DNA of 40,000 nucleotides, taken from positions 291,896 to 331,895 of the forward strand of contig JAWLCL010000005.1 in NCBI GenBank assembly GCA_041687255.1. Direction: 5' to 3'. Under the pieces are notes generated by a model, which saw only the letters and a program-made list of their open reading frames with translations, had not been told where the DNA came from and did not search any database. Made by a program: the position numbers and the translations under genes. The stretch comes from Mariniphaga sp. (GTDB lineage: Bacteria; Bacteroidota; Bacteroidia; Bacteroidales; Prolixibacteraceae). Positions 2,314 through 30,643 of the stretch are shown here, piece by piece (the first letter of the stretch is position 1; every line of letters starts with the position of its first letter).

Positions 2314-2556
2314 TTAAATTTTTTCTATAATTCCTTTTTCTTTTGCATCGTTAATGGCTGCTACTATGCCCTTTTTATTGATAGTACGCAACCCCGCTGC
2401 TGAAACCATTAACTGCACCCAACGGTTTTCGTTTGGCAGGAAAAATTTTTTCCTGAACAAATTTACGTTGAACTTTCTTTTAGTCCTGCGTTTTGAGTGG
2501 GAAACATTATTTCCCACCATCGCACTCTTTCCTGTTATTTGACAAACTCGTGACAT
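2314..2556 (-). CDS. rpmB: 50S ribosomal protein L28
   Basis: 80 aa, [33 protein letters not shown], typical L28. Confidence 0.95.
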
Positions 2557-3010
2557 TTCTATTATAATTTCTTGATGTACAAATCAAACACGTTTTTTAA
2601 CGGCTTGCAAAGAAAATACTTTTTTAATAAATAATCAAGCCGTTCGCAAAGTTTTTCCGCAAACAATTAACATTCGGATGTTAATTCTGTAAAGCAACCT
2701 GTAACTGCGCAATAAACACCCATTTAAAAAATCAACCTACGGGTGGTTTATACTCATAAACTGGGGAATTAATCAACATTTGTAACGTTTTTCTTTTCCG
2801 CTTAGTATAATGATTATCATTCCATCCGTTAATATCCAGCCCTAAAAACTGCCGGAATTACCAGGAACTACCTGCAGAACTGCAGCTATTAGGAATATTT
2901 GCGAAAGAATACCACCGGGTATTGGCACAATTTTTCCTCTTATACGTCAAATGTAAATAATTTCTGCCCGTTGCCTTTCCGCCTGGCCGGATTATTTCTA
3001 AATATCTTTT

Positions 3011-4576
3011 ATGAAAAAAAGAAAGCCTGTAATAATAGCCGGCATCATTCTTATTGTTTTAGCAATCGTAGTCTTTGCGGGGACCTTGATTCTTGGCAAT
3101 TATATTGAAGACGAACTGCAGAACCGGCAAATAGGAACTTACCGTGTGCAAAGCCGTGAAGCAGGTGTCAATGTTCTACTCAGACGCATCTCTATCAGAG
3201 ACGTAGTTGTTGAAGATTCCGCAGCAAATCAAAAAATCACTGTCCCTGAAATCAAGGCGACCGGAATTCATATTTTCCCTTTTGTTTTCAATGATGAAAT
3301 AATAATAAACAAGCTACACATTCAGCAACCCGAAATAACTGTAATGCGAAGCAACGGCGAAGAGGAATCCGGGCAGCAGGAAGATACTTCCACGGAACAG
3401 GACAGGGAAATTGAGCGGGTACATATCAAACAGTTTGAGGTAGCAGATGCAGCAGTTAGGGTACTGAACCGGACTTCCGGCAATGCCGACACCCTGCTTT
3501 CCATTCATTCAGGATTGGAAATTCGCAATCTGAACCTGTTCAGCGACAATCAGCAGCTAAAATTCAATGCACATTCGGCCGAAAAGCTTGAGGTGCAGTT
3601 AACCAACGGCTCATACAACCTTCCCGGAGGTTTGTATAAACTGCAATTCGGTTCGATCAACTTCAGTACAGAACAGGAAACCCTGAACCTGGAAGATCTT
3701 CATTTTTCCTCATTGCATTCAAAATACGATATTGCAAAACAGACAGGTGCAGAAACCGATTGGTACGACATCGTTCTGGAGCAGCTTAATGTGGAAGGCA
3801 TCAACATAAATGCCCTGCTACAGGATACGGCTGTAGTCTTCCGGTCTGCCCGGCTGGAAGGGCTTGATGCCAACATATTCAGGGATAAGCGTCCGCCATT
3901 TCCCGAAAAGCCGGATACAAAGCTGCCCATGGAAATGTTGCAGGCATTGCCGGTTCTTGTATATACCGATTCTATACTGATTAAAAACGGAAATGCAATA
4001 TACGAAGAGCATGCCGAGGAAAGCAGTGAACCGGGAAAGGTAACCTTTAGCCGACTGTATGCCACCATCTACAATCTGGGCACCCTGCAGGATTCTATCA
4101 ACGGGCAGACTGCCATGGCGATAAGGGCAATGGTTATGAATGAAGCGCTGCTTGAAGCAAAATTTGTCTTTCCCAATAATGAATACTCACACCAATACCG
4201 TGTATCGGGAAGCATGGAACCGGTTAGTTTGTCGGCTTTTAATCCGATGCTTGTTCCCGCCGCATTTGTGAAGGTTGAGCAAGGTCGCCTCAGGCAACTC
4301 ATATTTGATTTTACATACGACAATAACAATTCTGAAGGAAACCTGACCCTTCAATATGAAAACCTCGATATCAGCTTGCTTGATAAGGAAGACGGTTCGC
4401 AAAAAACTATAAAAACCTTCCTGACCGAAACTTTCGTTCTGCAGGAAGATAATCTGAAGAAAGACAATTCCTACCAGGAGGGTACAATATCGTTTGAACG
4501 GGAAAAGAAAAAATCGATATTTAACTACTGGTGGAAATCAATTTTTAGCGGCATAAAGGATATTTTGGCTTTTTAA
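3011..4576 (+). CDS. Membrane-anchored hypothetical protein (AsmA/DUF748-like is only a guess)
   Basis: 521-aa ORF with one N-terminal transmembrane helix (VIIAGIILIVLAIVVFAGTLILG). No motif I can name with confidence. Confidence 0.7.
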   Translation: MKKRKPVIIAGIILIVLAIVVFAGTLILGNYIEDELQNRQIGTYRVQSREAGVNVLLRRISIRDVVVEDSAANQKITVPEIKATGIHIFPFVFNDEIIINKLHIQQPEITVMRSNGEEESGQQEDTSTEQDREIERVHIKQFEVADAAVRVLNRTSGNADTLLSIHSGLEIRNLNLFSDNQQLKFNAHSAEKLEVQLTNGSYNLPGGLYKLQFGSINFSTEQETLNLEDLHFSSLHSKYDIAKQTGAETDWYDIVLEQLNVEGININALLQDTAVVFRSARLEGLDANIFRDKRPPFPEKPDTKLPMEMLQALPVLVYTDSILIKNGNAIYEEHAEESSEPGKVTFSRLYATIYNLGTLQDSINGQTAMAIRAMVMNEALLEAKFVFPNNEYSHQYRVSGSMEPVSLSAFNPMLVPAAFVKVEQGRLRQLIFDFTYDNNNSEGNLTLQYENLDISLLDKEDGSQKTIKTFLTETFVLQEDNLKKDNSYQEGTISFEREKKKSIFNYWWKSIFSGIKDILAF

Positions 4577-21101: not shown

Positions 21102-21167
21102 TTGTTTTTGAACAAAATATTTTTTAATTTTATTTGTCAATTCATAAAATCATTACTATTGCCTTCA

Positions 21168-22289
21168 TTGCCGAACATAATACTTAAAAGGGGTAAACGA
21201 AAAGGAGCCCCGGTTGTGCAGATAGAGTTTCCATACAACAAGCAGCTGATTGATGTAATCAGGCAAAAAACCAACGCCGCCTGGAGTGCTAATTTAGGCT
21301 GTTGGTACATTCCGGAAAGCAATTTTAACCTGGGAAATTTTTTCACTGCGCTTAAAGATGTGGCTTATATTGATTACAGGGAATTGCAAAAAGAGGGACA
21401 AGAGCAGATAGAGGATAGGCCGGAAAAAGAAAAAGCACATATAAAATTGCCTGCCGGATATCTTGAACGACTGGAGCAGGAACGTTACAGTGAAAGTACA
21501 ATAAAGACTTACACACATTATTTCAGAGATTTCATTTCAGCATTTTCGGAAAAAGATTTACAGTACATTACAAAGGAGGAAATCAATGCGTATATACTAA
21601 AACTTATTCAGGAGAAAGATATATCATCTTCCCAGCAAAATCAGCGCATTAATGCCATCAAGTTTTATTACGAAAAAGTACTTAACCGGAAGAAAGAATA
21701 CTACCAGATTGATCGTCCACGAAAAGAAAGGAGGCTTCCGGATGTACTTAGCAAGGAAGATATTGGCAGGATGATAAAAGCAACCGCAAACCTCAAGCAC
21801 AAATGCCTGATTTCAATTATTTATTCGTGTGGCTTACGACGGAGTGAAGCAGTAAACCTGCGATTGAAAGATATTGATTCCAAACGCATGCTTATAAAAA
21901 TAAGGGGTGCAAAGGGGAAGAAGGACAGATATGTTCCTTTATCGGGAGTGTTATTGGAATTACTGCGCAATTATTACCGGAAGGAGAAACCATCGAACTG
22001 GCTGTTTGAAGGCCTGGGAGGAATGCAATACAGTACCACCAGCATCTATAATGTAGTTAAGAATACAGCACGAAAAGCCGGCATAAAAAAGCGCATCTAT
22101 CCTCATATTTTGAGGCACAGTTTTGCCACCCATCATCTGGAACAGGGAACCGATCTTCGTTTTATCCAGGCTTTTTTAGGTCATGAAAGTTCAAAAACGA
22201 CTGAAATTTACACACATGTATCCAACAAGGAATTATTGAAATTTAAGAATCCGCTTGATGAAATTTTTGACTCCGATGAAAAACATTAA
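21168..22289 (+). CDS. Tyrosine recombinase, Xer-like catalytic core with an extra N-terminal domain; candidate cassette-array recombinase (not a canonical IntI)
   Basis: Catalytic residues are present in GLRRSE, GAKGKKDR, HILRHSFATH and LGHESSKTTEIYTH. The SAM-like core-binding domain includes YSESTIKTYTHYFRDFISAF. The start is uncertain: there is no in-frame ATG, so I chose TTG 21168 (MPNIILKRGKRKGAPVVQIEFPY); TTG 21159 is an alternative. The first 80 codons of ORF 20928 are low-complexity repeat sequence. Confidence 0.85.
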   Translation: MPNIILKRGKRKGAPVVQIEFPYNKQLIDVIRQKTNAAWSANLGCWYIPESNFNLGNFFTALKDVAYIDYRELQKEGQEQIEDRPEKEKAHIKLPAGYLERLEQERYSESTIKTYTHYFRDFISAFSEKDLQYITKEEINAYILKLIQEKDISSSQQNQRINAIKFYYEKVLNRKKEYYQIDRPRKERRLPDVLSKEDIGRMIKATANLKHKCLISIIYSCGLRRSEAVNLRLKDIDSKRMLIKIRGAKGKKDRYVPLSGVLLELLRNYYRKEKPSNWLFEGLGGMQYSTTSIYNVVKNTARKAGIKKRIYPHILRHSFATHHLEQGTDLRFIQAFLGHESSKTTEIYTHVSNKELLKFKNPLDEIFDSDEKH

Positions 22290-22381
22290 CATATTCCATT
22301 AATTTAGCGGTGTATATTCAATAGGATTAAGAAGACATATGAGATATAAATTCAATAATAGAACATACACAAACGTTATAG
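22290..22381 (+). promoter_or_regulatory. attI-like region and first recombination junction (GTTATAG at 22375-22381)
   Basis: GTTATAGCAAA at 22375 is the reverse complement of CTTGCTATAAC (23112-23122), the AAC box closing cassette 1 (10 of 11 match). ATTCAATA occurs as a direct repeat at 22316 and 22350. Confidence 0.5.
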
Positions 22382-23111: not shown

Positions 23112-23248
23112 CTTGCTATAACACGGTACATATTGCAGGGCGGGGTTCGGTGGTACGCCAACTGCGGATTCTCGTTTCACAGTTCCGTGTCCTTCGGACA
23201 GGAACGCTCTCCGAAATCCGCCCCGACAACATGTACCAACCGTTATGG
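23112..23248 (+). repeat. attC-like site 1
   Basis: R''-like CTATAAC (23116-23122) and R'-like GTTATGG (23242-23248). Arms GGTACAT / ATGTACC and GCGGATT / AATCCGC pair. Unpaired spacers are asymmetric (AC versus AACC). The central hairpin GTTCC-G-TGTC / GACAGGAAC has one bulged G. Confidence 0.7.
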
Positions 23249-23330: not shown

Positions 23331-23675
23331 ATGAGCAGACAAATCATATTTCACGGAGAATACTTTATTGACTTTTACAAGGAACTTGATGTTGGCGTTA
23401 AATCAAAAATTAAATATGTCTTTGAATTGATAAGGCAAGTTGAAATGGTCCCTAAAAAGTTTTTAGCTCCAATGACTGGTTACGAGGGACTCTTTGAAAT
23501 AAGAGTTGAATATCAGTCAAACATTTATAGGGTTTTCTGCTGCTTTGACGAAGGAAAACTTGTTGTTCTTTTCAACGGCTTTCAAAAGAAAACACAAAAG
23601 ACACCCAAGAAGGAAATAGAAAAGGCAATGAGATTAAAAGAAGATTATTTTAAACAGAAAAAATTGAAATCATGA
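23331..23675 (+). CDS. Cassette 2: RelE/ParE-superfamily toxin (HigB / phage Gp49-like)
   Basis: 114 aa. LFEIRVEYQSNIYRVFCCFDEGKLVVLFNGFQKKTQKTPKKEIEKA is typical of this family. A 4-nt ATGA overlap links it to the downstream HTH gene. Confidence 0.85.
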   Translation: MSRQIIFHGEYFIDFYKELDVGVKSKIKYVFELIRQVEMVPKKFLAPMTGYEGLFEIRVEYQSNIYRVFCCFDEGKLVVLFNGFQKKTQKTPKKEIEKAMRLKEDYFKQKKLKS

Positions 23676-24909: not shown

Positions 24910-24976
24910 CAAATTTTTCATCACATAGTTGTCCTTTAGTGAAACTTATTCTATCTTTATATCGTGAAAAACCAAT

Positions 24977-25307
24977 ATGAAATTTAGGACTGCAATATTC
25001 TACAAAGACTATTTTGAGAAATTTTTTCTCAAGCAATCTGAAAAAACCAAAGCGAAAATAATCTGGACTATTCAATTGAAGAACTTGAACGGGTACCAGA
25101 GATTTATTTAAAGCATATTGAGTCAACAGATGGTCTTTATGAAATTCGCATTAAACAAAGCGGTGATATTTTTAGGATCTTTTGTTTTTTTGACCAGGGA
25201 AAGCTGATAATAATAGTAAATGGATTTCAAAAGAAAACGCAAAAGACACCTAAAAGGAGATAGAAAAAGCACTTAAAATTATGGAGGAATATAAAAATGA
25301 AAAGTAA
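24977..25307 (+). pseudogene. Cassette 4: decayed RelE/HigB-like toxin (at least 2 frameshifts), paralog of 23331-23675
   Basis: MKFRTAIFYKDYFEKFFLKQSEKTKAKIIWTIQL, then a frame change to EELERVPEIYLKHIESTDGLYEIRIKQSGDIFRIFCFFDQGKLIIIVNGFQKKTQKTPK, then a second frame change to IEKALKIMEEYKNEK*. ORF 24809..25126 (-) is antisense noise. Confidence 0.8.
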
Positions 25308-25596
25308 TAACAAAATGACTCTAAATGAATTTAAAGATAAACATTATGGAGTTAAAGGAACTCAGAAACGGGATGAATTAGAAAATGGATATGAAGACTT
25401 TAAACTTGGTGCCTTATTGTATCAGGCTCGTATTGAAAAAGGGATGACACAGTCAGAACTGGCAGAAAAAGTGGGTACTACAAAATCTTATATTTCCAAA
25501 ATTGAAAATAACGTTAAAGAAGTAAGGCTTTCAACATTGCAGAAAATAGTTCAATTGGGTTTGGGTGGTAAACTTGATTTATCGATAAAACTATAA
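25297..25596 (+). CDS. Cassette 4: intact XRE-family HTH antitoxin (orphaned)
   Basis: 99 aa. MTQSELAEKVGTTKSYISKIENNVKEVRLSTL is a paralog of 23672-23971. Confidence 0.85.
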   Translation: MKSNNKMTLNEFKDKHYGVKGTQKRDELENGYEDFKLGALLYQARIEKGMTQSELAEKVGTTKSYISKIENNVKEVRLSTLQKIVQLGLGGKLDLSIKL

Positions 25597-26388: not shown

Positions 26389-26394
26389 AGTTCA

Positions 26395-26529
26395 GCCCAT
26401 AACAATGTACTTATTACAGGGCGTGTTTGGTGGTTCGCCAACTGCGGATTCTCGCATCGCAGGTCAGTCCTAGCGGACATGAACGCTCTCCTAAATCCGC
26501 CCCGAAAATTTAACACCTGAACGTTACAG
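26395..26529 (+). repeat. attC-like site 5 (apparent chimera)
   Basis: GCCCATAAC (26395-26403) and GTTACAG (26523-26529). The left arm resembles site 1 and the right arm resembles site 4. The arms are poorly complementary to each other. Confidence 0.6.
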
Positions 26530-26587
26530 GTAATAGCCAAGGGTTCATGCTACGAAAAAATATTTAGCTAATTTAAATGAAAATAAA

Positions 26588-26616: not shown

Positions 26617-26916
26617 ATGATTGATTCAAATAGCTTAATTAAGTATTTATCCGAGAATAAAGCCCGGTATGAAAAGGATTATAATTTAATCAGGATTGGC
26701 ATTTTTGGATCAGTTGCTCGTGGAGAACAGACTGATGGAAGTGATATTGATTTGGTCGTTGAGTTTAAACCAAATACACCCGATTTATACTCAAAAAAGT
26801 ACAAATTAAAAGAAGAGATTCAAGAAAAATTTAAAACTTCGGTTGATATATGCAGATTAAAATATATTAAACCAATTTTTAAACATATGATTCAATCTGA
26901 AGTTAAATATGTATAA
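26617..26916 (+). CDS. Cassette 6: minimal nucleotidyltransferase (MntA-type antitoxin)
   Basis: GIFGSVARGEQTDGSDIDLVVEF (GS...D.D nucleotidyltransferase motif). 99 aa, with an 8-nt overlap with the HEPN gene. Confidence 0.88.
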   Translation: MIDSNSLIKYLSENKARYEKDYNLIRIGIFGSVARGEQTDGSDIDLVVEFKPNTPDLYSKKYKLKEEIQEKFKTSVDICRLKYIKPIFKHMIQSEVKYV

Positions 26917-27259
26917 AACTACACATAAAGATTTTGCATGTATCTTAAATATATTGGATTCTATTTCAAAGATTGAAAAATATTCACACGATTTTTCTGA
27001 CGCCGATAGTTTTTACGAAGACAGCAAATCGTTTGATGCCGTTATGATGAATTTTGTTGTAATAGGTGAAATGGCAGAAAAGCTATCACACGGTTTTATT
27101 GAAAATACTGGTAAAGAAATAGAGTGGCCCAGAATAAAAGGATTAAGAAATATTATTGCACATGATTATTTTGGAATTGATGCAGAAGAAATCTGGCAAA
27201 TAATTCATGGCAGATTGCAGAATTTAAAAAGCTTTTTAGTAAAAATAACTAACGAATAG
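26909..27259 (+). CDS. Cassette 6: HEPN/DUF86 toxin (HepT-type)
   Basis: RNIIAHDYFGID (Rx4H HEPN motif). 116 aa. Confidence 0.88.
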   Translation: MYKTTHKDFACILNILDSISKIEKYSHDFSDADSFYEDSKSFDAVMMNFVVIGEMAEKLSHGFIENTGKEIEWPRIKGLRNIIAHDYFGIDAEEIWQIIHGRLQNLKSFLVKITNE

Positions 27260-27278
27260 GCTACATACCTGTAATCGA
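27259..27278 (+). repeat. attC-like site 6, left part (R'' box), separated from the rest by the intron
   Basis: GGCTACATACCTGTAAT (27259-27275) is the near reverse complement of GTTACAGGTAATAGCC (26523-26538), the 5' end of cassette 6. Confidence 0.6.
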
Positions 27279-27323
27279 GTAGCCTGCCCTGTCAGCAAAC
27301 GCTGACAGGGAGAAGCTCTCACA

Positions 27324-27357
27324 CCACCGTACGTACGGGTCTCGTATACGGCGGTTC
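27324..27357 (-). ncRNA. Group II intron domain V
   Basis: GAACCGCCGUAUACGAGACCCGUACGUACGGUGG, a 34-nt helix with a 2-nt bulge, immediately 3' of the reverse-transcriptase stop codon. Confidence 0.8.
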
Positions 27358-27358
27358 G

Positions 27359-28684
27359 TCAAGTCGTCAGGAAACCGAGGGACATAGTCCCTTCCCAATT
27401 TACAGGTTTACTTTGATTGTAGAGTTCCAGCAAAGGAACATAACCCCGTTTCTTCAACCGTTCAACGGTAATCGTAGTTCCAAGAATGGGGCTTTGGGCA
27501 ATTGCCCATCCACCCATACGTGAACGGCTCCATGAATAGGCTTGTTGGATTTCAACTCCTAACCGAATCAGGTTCTTCTTTTTTCGTTCAGGCTTTTTCC
27601 AGTGGTGCCAAATGCAATAGCGGAGCCGGTTTCTCAACCACCCATCCAGTTCTGCGAGTTTATTTTGGATGCTTGCCATTCGGAAAGCATTTACCCATCC
27701 GCGCTGGACTTCGTTGAGTTTTCTGATTCTTTCGTCGAAACTCAATGGAGTGGTTTTTCGGGTTATCGTTTTTAGCTTTTGCTTAAACTTTCCCCAGCTC
27801 TTTTTCGCAACTACCAGTTGATACTTGCCACGTTCGCCTTTCACATATGTAGGTACAAAGCCAAACCCTAAGCAGGTAAATTGTACAGGCCTGCGGATAC
27901 CACTTTTCTCCCGGTTGATGGCTAACTTTAACTTGTCCCGAAGGAATTTGTAAATGTTGTTGCCTGCCTTCCGGGCAGTTGCTTTTGTTTTAACATAAAT
28001 GCTAAAATCATCGGCATAGCGGATAAACCGTAGTCCCTGTCGTTCCAGTTCTCTATCCAGTTCATGCAGCATGATATTGGACAGTAACGGGCTTAGCGGG
28101 CTACCCTGTGGTACGCCTTTTCGTCGTTTGACTAGTTTCCCTTTTATTTGAATCGGGGCACGCAGCCATTTTCGGATGAGACGCATGGTGTCGCGGCATT
28201 TGATTTTACGGTTTAGCAATTGCAGCAGATAGCAATGGTCAACTTCATCGAAGAAAGTTTTTAAGTCAATATCTACGATGTATTGAAACCCTTCGTTGAT
28301 GTACCCCTGTGCTTTCAAAACTGCCTGATGCAGATTTCTATTTGGCCGGAACCCAAAACTGGATTCCGAGAATTCAGATTCGAATCTTGCATTAATGACT
28401 TGCAAAACCGCTTGTTGAAGTAGTCGGTCGGTTACCGTGGGAATCCCCAGTAATCTGGTTTTCCCGTTCCCTTTCGGGATTTCTACTCCTAAAATGGGTT
28501 GAGGCAAATACTTTCCACTTCTGAGTTTTACTGTCAGTTCTTCCTTGTCGATTGACATGAGTTCCGAGAGTTTGGTTACAGGCATGTGGTCGACTCCTGC
28601 CGAACCGTGGTTCTTCTGGACTTGACGCATTGCCTGCAACAGGTTCTTCCGTGTAAGAATTTGTTCAATCATTTTAGTTTTCAT
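27359..28684 (-). CDS. Group II intron reverse transcriptase/maturase (no endonuclease domain)
   Basis: 441 aa. RT motifs are present, including IRYADDFSIYV (YADD) and PQGSPLSPLLSNIML. The X/maturase region includes RGWVNAF. The protein ends soon after, so there is no D/En domain. Confidence 0.93.
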   Translation of the reverse strand: MKTKMIEQILTRKNLLQAMRQVQKNHGSAGVDHMPVTKLSELMSIDKEELTVKLRSGKYLPQPILGVEIPKGNGKTRLLGIPTVTDRLLQQAVLQVINARFESEFSESSFGFRPNRNLHQAVLKAQGYINEGFQYIVDIDLKTFFDEVDHCYLLQLLNRKIKCRDTMRLIRKWLRAPIQIKGKLVKRRKGVPQGSPLSPLLSNIMLHELDRELERQGLRFIRYADDFSIYVKTKATARKAGNNIYKFLRDKLKLAINREKSGIRRPVQFTCLGFGFVPTYVKGERGKYQLVVAKKSWGKFKQKLKTITRKTTPLSFDERIRKLNEVQRGWVNAFRMASIQNKLAELDGWLRNRLRYCIWHHWKKPERKKKNLIRLGVEIQQAYSWSRSRMGGWAIAQSPILGTTITVERLKKRGYVPLLELYNQSKPVNWEGTMSLGFLTT

Positions 28685-29222
28685 TTCCTGTTTCCCTGTT
28701 CCGCTTAATGTAAGGCTAGAGTTTATTCAAAAGCTTCCTTACAACATTTGGAACAACTTAACGTTCGCCCTTCGGTTCGTCTGTGAGGCCTCCACCGTAT
28801 TCTGGCAGCTCGTTTCCAAAACCTACTATGGCTTCTGCTGACTTCCCGCCAACTGGCGGGACCTCCCCAGGTAAGAGCATCCTCCTTCCTCCGATTCCTG
28901 CTGAATCTACTTGATAAACACACTCCCTTTCGGGCTTTAGGACATCACAATGATGTGCTTGCTCATCCGGTCTATCAAGCCTCGTATCCAGTTCCTGTTC
29001 GTCAGTACCGGAGTTTGTAGTCTCGCTTCCTTCACTGCCTGGGTTACCCCAAACCAGCTTGCGACTTACTAATGCTTCAAGGAGTCACCCCTGCGCATAA
29101 GGGACTTACACCCTCTGGAAATATTTCATGCTCCACTTATGTTCATTGCAATGAAAAATTTGTATTTTTCGAATTTATTCAGAGCTTTCACAAAAGTGTG
29201 CACATGCTCATGCTGGGCACAC

Positions 29223-29351
29223 ACATCATGTATAAAACAATGGGGGTTTATGTGTTCAGTGTAAATCCATTCCCCGTAGCAAATATCTTAACGGCAGACA
29301 ATAATGACGCTCGCAAGTCCCCATCATTTCATACATGTGGGTGTTGGCAGC
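29223..29351 (+). repeat. attC-like site 6, right part (L'' - loop - L' - R')
   Basis: CATCATGTATAAAACAATGGGGG (29224-29246) pairs with CCCCATCATTTCATACATGTGGG (29319-29341), 16 of 19 aligned. This is followed by GTTGGCAGC (29343-29351). Confidence 0.6.
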
Positions 29352-29837: not shown

Positions 29838-29876
29838 GCTGCCAACAGCACCAACACGCAAGTGGGGGTTCAGTGC
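29838..29876 (+). repeat. attC-like site 7, probably truncated (left box only)
   Basis: GCTGCCAAC (29838-29846) is the exact reverse complement of GTTGGCAGC (29343-29351), which opens cassette 7. I cannot find a convincing right arm or GTT box; GTTCAGTG at 29869 is only a candidate. Confidence 0.3.
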
Positions 29877-30173
29877 TTCTATGAAAGAATGGTCGTCGAT
29901 AAAAACGCTCCAGATTCTGAAGAGTATTTATATGGCTCTCAGGCAAGAGGAAATGCAAAAAAACTTTCTGATTGGGATTTGCTTATATTGCTTAATACTC
30001 CAAATGTTACTTTTGACTTTGAAACCAGGTTTATGGATGAATTTTATGAATTGGAACTGGAAACAGGTGAAATCTTCTCTCCATTGATTTACTCTAAAGA
30101 TGATTGGAAATCAAAATATTCAATTACTCCATTATACGAAAATATACAACGAGAAGGAATCAGATTAAAATGA
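29862..30173 (+). CDS. Cassette 8: nucleotidyltransferase-domain protein (antitoxin-type)
   Basis: YLYGSQARGNAKKLSDWDLLILL (GS...D.D motif). The start is uncertain (GTG 29862 or ATG 29889) and the N-terminus may be shortened. Confidence 0.7.
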   Translation: MGVQCFYERMVVDKNAPDSEEYLYGSQARGNAKKLSDWDLLILLNTPNVTFDFETRFMDEFYELELETGEIFSPLIYSKDDWKSKYSITPLYENIQREGIRLK

Positions 30174-30464
30174 CTGGAACAAAAACCGATTTAGTTAATT
30201 ACAGAATTGCCAGAGCAAAAGACACTTATGAAGATGCTTTAATTCTTTCTGAAAGAGAAAAATGGAATTCCACGATTAACAGATTATATTAATACAACTT
30301 ATTATGCTGTAATAGCTCTCCTGCTCGATTCGGATCTAAATCCAACAACTCATAACGGAGCAAAATCAAATCTCAAGACAGGGAAGATTGATTCAAAATA
30401 TAGCAAAATTTATTCTCAGTTATTCACGTGGAGGCAAAAAGGAGATTATGCAGATTTATTTGGG
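30170..30464 (+). pseudogene. Cassette 8: HEPN-domain gene, frameshifted and 3'-truncated
   Basis: The ATGA overlap with the NT gene is intact. The gene reads MTGTKTDLVNYRIARAKDTYEDALILSEREKWNSTINRLY*, then continues in another frame as YYAVIALLLDSDLNPTTHNGAKSNLKTGKIDSKYSKIYSQLFTWRQKGDYADLF. It stops abruptly where the intron-relic homology begins. Confidence 0.75.
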
Positions 30465-30643
30465 TACGGGTCTCGTATACGGCGGTTCGTCAAGTCATCA
30501 GGAAACCGAAAGACATAGTCACTTTCCAATTACAGGTTTACTTTAATTGCAGAGTTCCAGTAAAGGAGTATCGCTTCCTCAATCGTTAAACTGTAATTGC
30601 TTTTCCAATCCCGATAGCTATCGGGAGGGCTGTGGCAATTGCC
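30465..30643 (-). mobile_element. Truncated, diverged relic of the same group II intron (half of domain V plus the RT C-terminal coding region)
   Basis: GTACGGGTCTCGTATACGGCGGTTCGTCAAGTC.TCAGGAAACCGA ... GGCAATTGCC aligns with 27333-27506 in the same orientation. It ends 10 nt before the sulfatase stop codon. Confidence 0.8.

Follow-up and report, generated by a model that had tools for sequence, protein, structure and literature searches.

A complete class C group II intron at an attC site of a Mariniphaga cassette array, probably one of a separate Bacteroidota lineage

The stretch of DNA analysed here, 40,000 nt of the Mariniphaga sp. contig JAWLCL010000005.1 (hereafter the window), carries a chromosomal integron-type cassette array that extends from an attI at ~22300-22375 to ~30610, and whose cargo consists of toxin-antitoxin cassettes (Gp49/HTH, MazF, nucleotidyltransferase/HepT) and of small proteins of unassigned function. 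Within this array the attC of the nucleotidyltransferase/HepT cassette is interrupted by a group II intron, which lies on the minus strand while the cassettes lie on the plus strand. The element is a complete class C intron with an intact open reading frame (ORF) and exactly defined ends; it is apparently functional and is predicted to be a self-splicing retroelement. Its parts are as follows:

27274-29222, minus strand: group II intron, class C, complete, 1949 nt, running from 5' GUGUG to CUACUCGAU 3' (placed by Rfam matches, related junctions and R'' restoration)
27359-28684, minus strand: intron-encoded protein, 441 aa, with reverse transcriptase (RT; YADD) and maturase X domain and no endonuclease domain
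28685-29222, minus strand: ribozyme domains I-III and 5' part of domain IV, 538 nt, with an AT-rich hairpin inserted in domain I
27324-27357, minus strand: domain V, 34 nt, GAACCGCCGUAUACGAGACCCGUACGUACGGUGG, catalytic triad CGC (RF00029 alignment)
27274-27323, minus strand: domain VI, an extended stem with a bulged branch-point A at 27280 (RF00029 alignment)
28953-28956, minus strand: exon-binding site 1 (EBS1; ACAU), in the loop GCACAUCA, complementary to AUGU, the 4 nt with which the 5' exon closes
29223-29226, minus strand: intron-binding site 1 (IBS1), AUGU, the final 4 nt of the 5' exon, right after the attC L-box stem (from the sequence)
27273, minus strand: IBS3, the first nt of the 3' exon (U); related junctions mostly start T(A/G)(G/T)(C/G)

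Identity, ends and domains of the intron

Two Rfam models recognise the element on the minus strand, RF02001 (group-II-D1D4-3) at 28876-29053 with 112 bits (E 2.5e-22) and RF00029 (domains V/VI) at 27274-27356 with 39.2 bits (E 1.3e-5), which bears out a preliminary description of the window in which a minus-strand group II intron had been proposed. The 5' end given there, GUGUGCCCAGCAUGAGC at 29222, also holds. The termini GUGUG (29222) and …CGAU (27274) fit the GUGYG/AY rule of group II introns and are kept in about 75 related copies, which we collected in a family scan of one genome per species that comprised 75 loci with RT relatives at 71-92% identity. These distinct copies (about 75) start with GTGTGCCC, or in a minority with GTGCGCCC, and the approximately 50 whose 3' end was captured all finish CTA(C/T)TC(G/A)AT, so that the related junctions read NTGT/GTGTGCCC…CTACTCGAT/T…, where the slash between bases marks the junction. 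Alternative starts at 29224 or 29220 were ruled out, the relatives all opening with GTGTGCCC right after NTGT.

At the other end the preliminary description had stopped the intron at 27279, giving an element of 1944 nt that would end 4 nt upstream of a ATTACAGG box. It is true that the GGCUAC found there ends in AY-like bases and that ATTACAGG resembles GTTRRRY, but this geometry would put the branch-point A only 2 nt from the 3' end, both the Rfam match and all relatives continue to …CUCGAU, and the boundary restores no complement of the cassette start, compared to 10 nt with 27274; it can practically be dismissed. Since the Rfam match stops at 27274, a splice site there is separated by 7 nt from the branch A (27280) and the ends of about 50 relatives agree with it, we place the 3' end at 27274, and the length of the intron is therefore 1949 nt.

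The 441-aa ORF matches RVT_1 (7e-39) and GIIM (3e-16) in Pfam and nothing else, and it scores 377 bits against the cutoff of 300 in TIGR04416, the NCBIfam equivalog model of group II RT/maturases, in agreement with its earlier characterisation as an RT with YADD and a maturase region that lacks an endonuclease domain. Among proteins of solved structure in the Protein Data Bank (PDB) it is closest to the class C enzymes, namely GsI-IIC (8e-104) and the Eubacterium rectale IIC RT (2e-99), while its matches to other classes, LtrA (IIA; 5e-36) and the Thermosynechococcus elongatus protein (IIB; 2e-33), are far weaker. In a neighbour-joining (NJ) tree the protein likewise nests among IIC introns, and the assignment to class C made at the outset is thus confirmed by the ORF. 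The intron presumably also resembles the Oceanobacillus iheyensis ribozyme in sequence, a likeness already suggested in the preliminary description.

For the pre-ORF 5' part, an RNAalifold consensus was computed from the window intron, 18 full-length relatives and three natural ORF-less copies (n=22), in which the consensus helices are 89-100% canonical. Double compensatory changes affect 9 of 11 pairs in helix 243-253/304-314, 7 of 8 in 362-369/372-379 and 8 of 9 in 480-489/504-514, counts that are large, though biased towards structure because RNAalifold itself rewards covariation. The pairing that the program draws between the first six bases and nt 22-27 is probably a misfold and was set aside; domain I is presumably closed instead by CCCAG/CUGGG and GAGCAU/AUGCUC, by comparison with other IIC introns. 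Strong covariation was also seen in domains V and VI among 53 variants, which keep an unpaired A 7 nt from the 3' end. The domain V string at 27357-27324 had been correctly recognised before; its triad region aligns with RF00029 as AAC-CGC-CGUAU in the window against the consensus GAGCCGUAU (AGC), and CGC in place of AGC is the class C form of the domain V triad (PMC7923331). The structure search proposed in the preliminary description thus supports domains I-VI, through the Rfam models and through abundant compensatory changes.

Class C introns select their targets by a hairpin and by 3-4 bp of IBS1/EBS1 and IBS3/EBS3 pairing, without IBS2. The window intron follows this pattern, with a hairpin directly upstream and a short IBS1/EBS1 that in the family has a fixed UGU core and a fourth base that varies. 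The loop GCACAUCA is conserved across the intron family, whose sites read NUGU; the UGU/ACA core of IBS1/EBS1 is invariant and the fourth position is weakly correlated, a pattern that is consistent with the mechanism and is no independent proof of it.

An additional feature of domain I is a family-specific hairpin of ~85 nt with covarying stems and a nearly invariant block, AAGCUC…AAAAUACAAAU (window 29151-29190). Read on the cassette strand this block is TTTG-N19-GAGCTTTC (29159-29189), which fits the Bacteroidetes -33/-7 promoter consensus (PMC7366714) loosely and is placed about where P1out sits in proteobacterial IIC-attC introns. Of 49 distinct copies, 20 contain the loose promoter motif and 3 the strict Bacteroidetes -7 motif. 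The block may be a weak outward promoter of the Bacteroidetes type, or else an RNA element for a tertiary contact or for protein binding.

The divided attC and the insertion sites of related introns

The attC that harbours the intron is divided into two parts, to which the start of its own cassette and the R'' of the next one provide the reference:

27266-27273, plus strand: left part of the split attC, R'' bases TACCTGTA
29223-29351, plus strand: right part of the split attC, with AC (R'' end), L'' at ~29227-29245, central region, L' at ~29319-29337, and R'
29343-29351, plus strand: R', GTTGGCAGC, complementary to R'' GCTGCCAAC of the next cassette at 29838-29846
26523-26532, plus strand: GTTACAGGTA, R' of the attC before this one, where the intron-bearing cassette starts

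When 27274-29222 is deleted, TACCTGTA is joined to AC (29223-29224), yielding TACCTGTAAC, which over 10 nt is the exact complement of the start of its own cassette, GTTACAGGTA. In all seven cassettes of the array the bases following G/TT at the start are an exact complement of the cassette's own R'' over 9-10 nt, and since this relation holds for the interrupted cassette after removal of the intron, the two flanks constitute one attC. The 10-nt exact complement and the E-values of the Rfam matches speak against a chance resemblance. On the bottom strand the site reads …CAUGAUGU/intron/UACAGG, i.e. the R'' box is cut as GT/TACAGG directly after the L-box stem and the 4-nt IBS1, and the predicted ligated exons are …CAUGAUGU/UACAGGUAUG. 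The central proposal of the preliminary description, an antisense insertion into the attC bottom strand at the R'' end whose excision restores one attC, is supported by the strands of intron and cassettes and by the restored R'', provided that the boundary at 27274 is used, and R' is indeed found on the right-hand side. Several details had to be revised. The intron lies inside the R'' box rather than 4 nt before it; the string GGCTACATACCTGTAAT that had been taken for R'' ends in two bases of the intron, the true R'' being TACCTGTA/AC across the junction; and the restored site measures ~135 nt from R'' to R' instead of ~149 nt. The L''/L' pairing, placed there at 29224-29246 with 29319-29341, was confirmed (~29227-29245 with ~29319-29337). 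For introns of the IIC-attC type, insertion at R'' in the antisense direction to the cassettes is known, with TTGT/T as the target (PMC7923331, PMC3001079), a published consensus that the window site, ATGT/T, matches.

The relatives of the intron, at 60-93% RT identity overall, are abundant in Prolixibacteraceae/Marinilabiliales genomes, and their hosts belong almost only to the Prolixibacteraceae and other Marinilabiliales (Mariniphaga, Draconibacterium, Marinifilum, Labilibaculum, Prolixibacter, Sunxiuqinia). Plasmids of Persicobacter, Chondrinema and Chryseobacterium carry more distant relatives (60-69% identity), which again occupy attC-like sites. Among 77 distinct non-tandem 5' junctions, 74 read NTGT (TTGT 41, GTGT 16, ATGT 12, CTGT 5), and the 3' exons open with T(A/G)(G/T)(C/G)…, completing GT/TRRRY. 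In an ungapped test the imperfect palindromes at 55 of the 77 junctions scored higher than the 95th percentile of shuffled sequences, with spans clustering at 95-121 nt, the size of an attC, and four at 162-163 nt. Furthermore, the first attC within the window itself (23113-23248) matches occupied sites at four loci of relatives (L017, L018, L021 and L007; L numbers denote our loci), the empty window site reading …GTACCGTGT·TATAGC and the occupied L017 …GTACTGTGT/intron/TATAGC, and is thus an empty-site homologue of sites that are occupied elsewhere.

These junctions also bear on the question of whether the family is specialised on attC sites at all, or whether the window copy is a generic terminator-targeting IIC intron that accepts any hairpin with a T-rich tail and came to lie in an attC by accident. 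A few copies (L061, L041) do follow terminator-like hairpins, at these loci and at L012 the insertion lies either behind such a hairpin or at a site without evident palindrome, 22 of the 77 junctions fail the ungapped test, and IIC-attC introns too retain some terminator targeting (PMC7923331). However, 74 of 77 junctions with NTGT followed by T(A/G)(G/T)(C/G)… reproduce the GT/TRRRY of an R'' box, the palindromes have a tight span of ~110 nt that is typical of attC sites and not of terminators, and many copies lie within cassette arrays, in repeated attC families. An accidental insertion by a family without attC specialisation is therefore very unlikely.

The family is often multi-copy, with near-identical copies within single genomes, at least 10 of them in one Draconibacterium assembly, which points to recent mobility of the family. 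As for the window copy, one might regard it as a structurally intact but silent passenger that neither splices nor moves and whose sole effect is one disrupted attC, considering that the window has only one full copy and one 83%-identical relic, and that the intron is antisense to the array and has no identified promoter of its own. In contrast, its ORF runs through without a break and includes YADD and every domain, none of the catalytic RNA elements is missing, and the near-identical multiple copies of its relatives speak for recent movement within the family, which makes a silent passenger rather unlikely.

Several arrangements observed among the relatives deserve mention. In Marinifilum, many ORF-less derivatives of 668 nt were found (L034 1806-2473; L037 7309-8644; L039; L042 6365-7032 and 8325-8992), which retain the first 527 nt together with the 3' end, starting near nt 1827 of the full copy (roughly the last 90 nt); because they are present in different attC sites without an ORF, they are presumably mobilised in trans. 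Spacer-less head-to-tail copies (…CUACUCGAU/GUGUGCCC…) occur at L010 (6390/6391), L062 (6362/6363 and 8275/8276) and L075 (6369/6370), and further junctions of this kind at L037 (7976/7977), L042 (6364/6365) and L023 (6069/6070); since they fall outside the NTGT/T rule, they may arise by template switching or recombination. In one Draconibacterium assembly (L007 6391-8266), a second, different group II intron (RF01999 66 bits, RF00029 62 bits, 417-aa ORF) follows immediately after the class C intron, and this pair recurs at at least seven different attC sites (also L008, L009, L010, L011, L014 and L032), as if the two introns were co-moving. No paper linking group II introns with attC sites in Bacteroidota was found in the literature searched.

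The cassette array and its recombinase

The array is headed by a recombinase gene, and the remaining features that touch the intron are the genes of its cassette and a second, degraded intron copy:

21159-22289, plus strand: tyrosine recombinase, 376 aa, heading the array and co-oriented with the cassettes
26617-26916: nucleotidyltransferase gene of the intron-bearing cassette
26909-27259: HepT toxin gene of the intron-bearing cassette
30464-30608, minus strand: relic of a second intron copy, 145 nt, corresponding to intron nt 1740-1890 (ORF C-terminus to mid domain V) at 83% identity

The cassette next to the intron-bearing one encodes a DUF6122 protein. The recombinase aligns with VchIntIA in two blocks, with 23 of its residues opposite 66 in VchIntIA, and thus lacks the additional domain that is specific to IntI. 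Its score in TIGR02249, 213.8, is under the cutoff of 265, it is above the cutoff of NF040815, and its best PDB matches are archaeal XerA proteins. A tool requiring the IntI C-terminal signature would probably call the array a CALIN (attC cluster without integrase). Homologues of the recombinase in other genomes head arrays with different cassettes, and the attI, which contains two ATAAATTCAATA-like repeats, is exactly conserved to ACG/TTA in three other genomes and divergent beyond, as expected of an attI.

Two attC sites of the window, 23113-23248 and 26393-26532, have a common conserved core that is 90-95% identical to attC sites of several other Prolixibacteraceae genomes, so that attC sequence families are common to several species. 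A degraded Gp49-like toxin gene (24960-25260), 73% identical to 23523-23608 and broken in frame, lies upstream of the second HTH antitoxin gene (25297-25596), so that a toxin-antitoxin cassette has decayed here. Beside a sulfatase gene, where the array ends, the intron relic abuts a truncated HEPN-like pseudogene (30171-30463) with an internal stop; this end has evidently been eroded by deletion.

Proposed insertion and place among class C introns

To compare the intron with known attC introns, 31 RTs were included in the NJ tree (300 bootstraps), among them three introns of class 1 integrons that were recovered from plasmids, after blaIMP-4 (L076), aadA6 (L080) and arr-2 (L089), and whose junctions read TTGT/GUACGCCC…CUACCCGAU/TA. 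From its blaIMP-4 context, L076 is presumably Kl.pn.I3. The arr-2 context of L089 corresponds to the arr2 context given for Kl.pn.I1 (record AJ971342). A further class C intron of a class 1 integron (L082; Vibrio parahaemolyticus pVb0499, ~2350-4300) lies where the aadA1 attC meets the 3' conserved segment (…CCCGAU/TAGAT…) in the same orientation as the cassettes, opposite to the usual IIC-attC orientation.

In the tree, support was 100% for the Bacteroidota clade as well as for the proteobacterial attC clade, their union was monophyletic in only 1 of 300 bootstraps, and the Bacteroidota clade nested with Firmicutes introns at 63-78% support. The resemblance to proteobacterial IIC-attC introns that had been noted from the outset thus holds for behaviour, with insertion at the published R'' site TTGT/T in antisense, and does not extend to membership in their clade. 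If the intron were an ordinary member of the proteobacterial lineage (S.ma.I2 / Kl.pn.I1 type) and had reached a Bacteroidota integron by horizontal transfer, the identical target strand, orientation and site (NTGT/T in R'') would be readily explained, and the IIC-attC lineage has been reported as monophyletic with 100% bootstrap support. However, the window RT shares only 37-38% identity with the class-1-integron attC introns, against 42-45% with class C introns located behind terminators in Firmicutes. Likewise, the RNA ends and domain V are of the Firmicutes/Oceanobacillus pattern (GUGUGCCC…CUACUCGAU) and not of that of proteobacterial attC introns (GUACGCCC…CUACCCGAU, 5' GUACG), and a 2010 study placed other Bacteroidetes class C introns (Bacteroides thetaiotaomicron and Microscilla) among the class C reference sequences beside the IIC-attC set. 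Together with the failure of the two attC clades to unite, these differences make such a transfer very unlikely, and suggest that the Bacteroidota attC-homing introns probably form a lineage separate from proteobacterial IIC-attC.

In our preferred reading, to which we assign a probability of about 0.88, a retromobile class C intron has reverse-spliced into the attC bottom strand of the nucleotidyltransferase/HepT cassette, as a member of a large, probably distinct Bacteroidota lineage of attC-homing introns. By analogy with other IIC introns, the folded single-stranded attC hairpin would stand in for their terminator hairpin, EBS1 (ACAU) would pair with IBS1 (AUGU) and a putative EBS3 with the first U of the 3' exon, and priming of complementary DNA would depend on replication because the protein has no endonuclease domain. 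The occupied attC should be unable to fold because R'' lies 1.9 kb away from L'', L' and R', so that the nucleotidyltransferase/HepT and DUF6122 cassettes would be locked as one unit. Being antisense, the intron should not be removable from cassette transcripts, and it may block cassette read-through, as was shown for S.ma.I2.

Several observations weigh against this reading or limit its reach. Splicing, lariat formation and mobility of the window copy are predictions from its sequence, and the RF00029 match falls 0.8 bits short of the gathering score of 40. The restored bottom strand folds as DNA into a 19-bp imperfect L stem, but not more stably than after shuffling (z = -0.32); the folding energy was not counted as evidence for the hairpin, and the identity of the attC therefore rests on the comparative data. 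As the recombinase is devoid of the IntI additional domain, the site is not fully secured as an attC in the strict integron sense. The comparison with intron-less alleles, which the preliminary description had suggested, provided the empty-site homologue of the same target family, while no intron-less allele of the nucleotidyltransferase/HepT cassette itself was found, none of 170 loci matching the restored attC; the closest metagenomic HepT relatives are 64-68% identical, and closely related integrases head arrays with different cassettes. The complementarity of R'' and cassette start, together with the empty-site homologue, which is from another attC family than the split site, served in place of such an allele. 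Finally, the NJ tree was built without deep IIC-attC members (Geobacter, Nitrosomonas and others) and without a curated intron ORF set.

That a IIC intron should insert into an attC is in itself unsurprising since such events are already known; here it was carried out by a probably distinct and very successful Bacteroidota lineage. It is tempting to speculate, at a little less than even odds, that class C introns acquired attC homing on two or more occasions, or that this behaviour is older and more labile than the monophyletic view implies, with a second lineage, abundant in Marinilabiliales and other Bacteroidota, having co-evolved with arrays of a co-oriented, Xer-like recombinase without the IntI domain. 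A separate lineage bears on the evolution of target specificity in class C introns, which combine hairpin recognition with 3-4 bp of pairing. According to an idea of Leon and Roy, such introns may help to join attC sites to genes and thereby create new cassettes, and if the second-lineage reading is true, the ORF-less minis, the tandems and the few terminator insertions would represent a natural test system for it. The host array is notable too, because its recombinase lacks the IntI-specific domain and yet the cassette boundaries are of textbook form and the attI is conserved, and complete integrons have been reported to be rare in Bacteroidota (PMC9024848). Occupied attC sites will split cassettes or hide them from attC-based integron finders; as the intron family recognises folded attC-type sites, it in turn marks such sites independently of other criteria.

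Compared to the proteobacterial IIC-attC introns (S.ma.I2, E.c.I7, Kl.pn.I1, Kl.pn.I3; Quiroga, Centron, Leon, Roy), the window intron has in common the class C ribozyme, the endonuclease-less intron-encoded protein, the antisense insertion on the bottom strand inside R'' at (T)TGT/T after the stem, and the occasional use of terminators. It differs from them in its termini, in the sequence of domain V, in its host phylum (Bacteroidota), and in residing in an array whose head is formed by a co-oriented recombinase that lacks the IntI additional domain; their outward promoters of sigma-70 type are not evident in the window intron, which has only a weak Bacteroidetes-like motif. The Firmicutes IIC introns (Oceanobacillus iheyensis O.i.I1, B.h.I1, GsI-IIC, Eubacterium rectale E.r.I2) include the nearest solved RTs and form the nearest group in the tree, and their 5' end (GUGUGCC/GUGCGCC), 3' end (CUACUCGAU) and domain V sequence resemble those of the window intron. 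They also make use of a hairpin and a short IBS1, but follow rho-independent terminators, usually sense to the upstream gene (L084, L086), whereas the Bacteroidota family follows imperfect attC palindromes of ~110 nt, cuts the GT/TRRRY box and has the extra hairpin of ~85 nt in domain I. A similar situation has been described for UHB.F1 from a hypersaline soda lake (Sonbol and Siam, 2021; PMC7923331), where an antisense class C intron likewise lies in a cassette of a toxin-antitoxin array; while UHB.F1 is 5'-truncated and was assigned to IIC-attC, the window intron is complete and apparently belongs to a distinct lineage.

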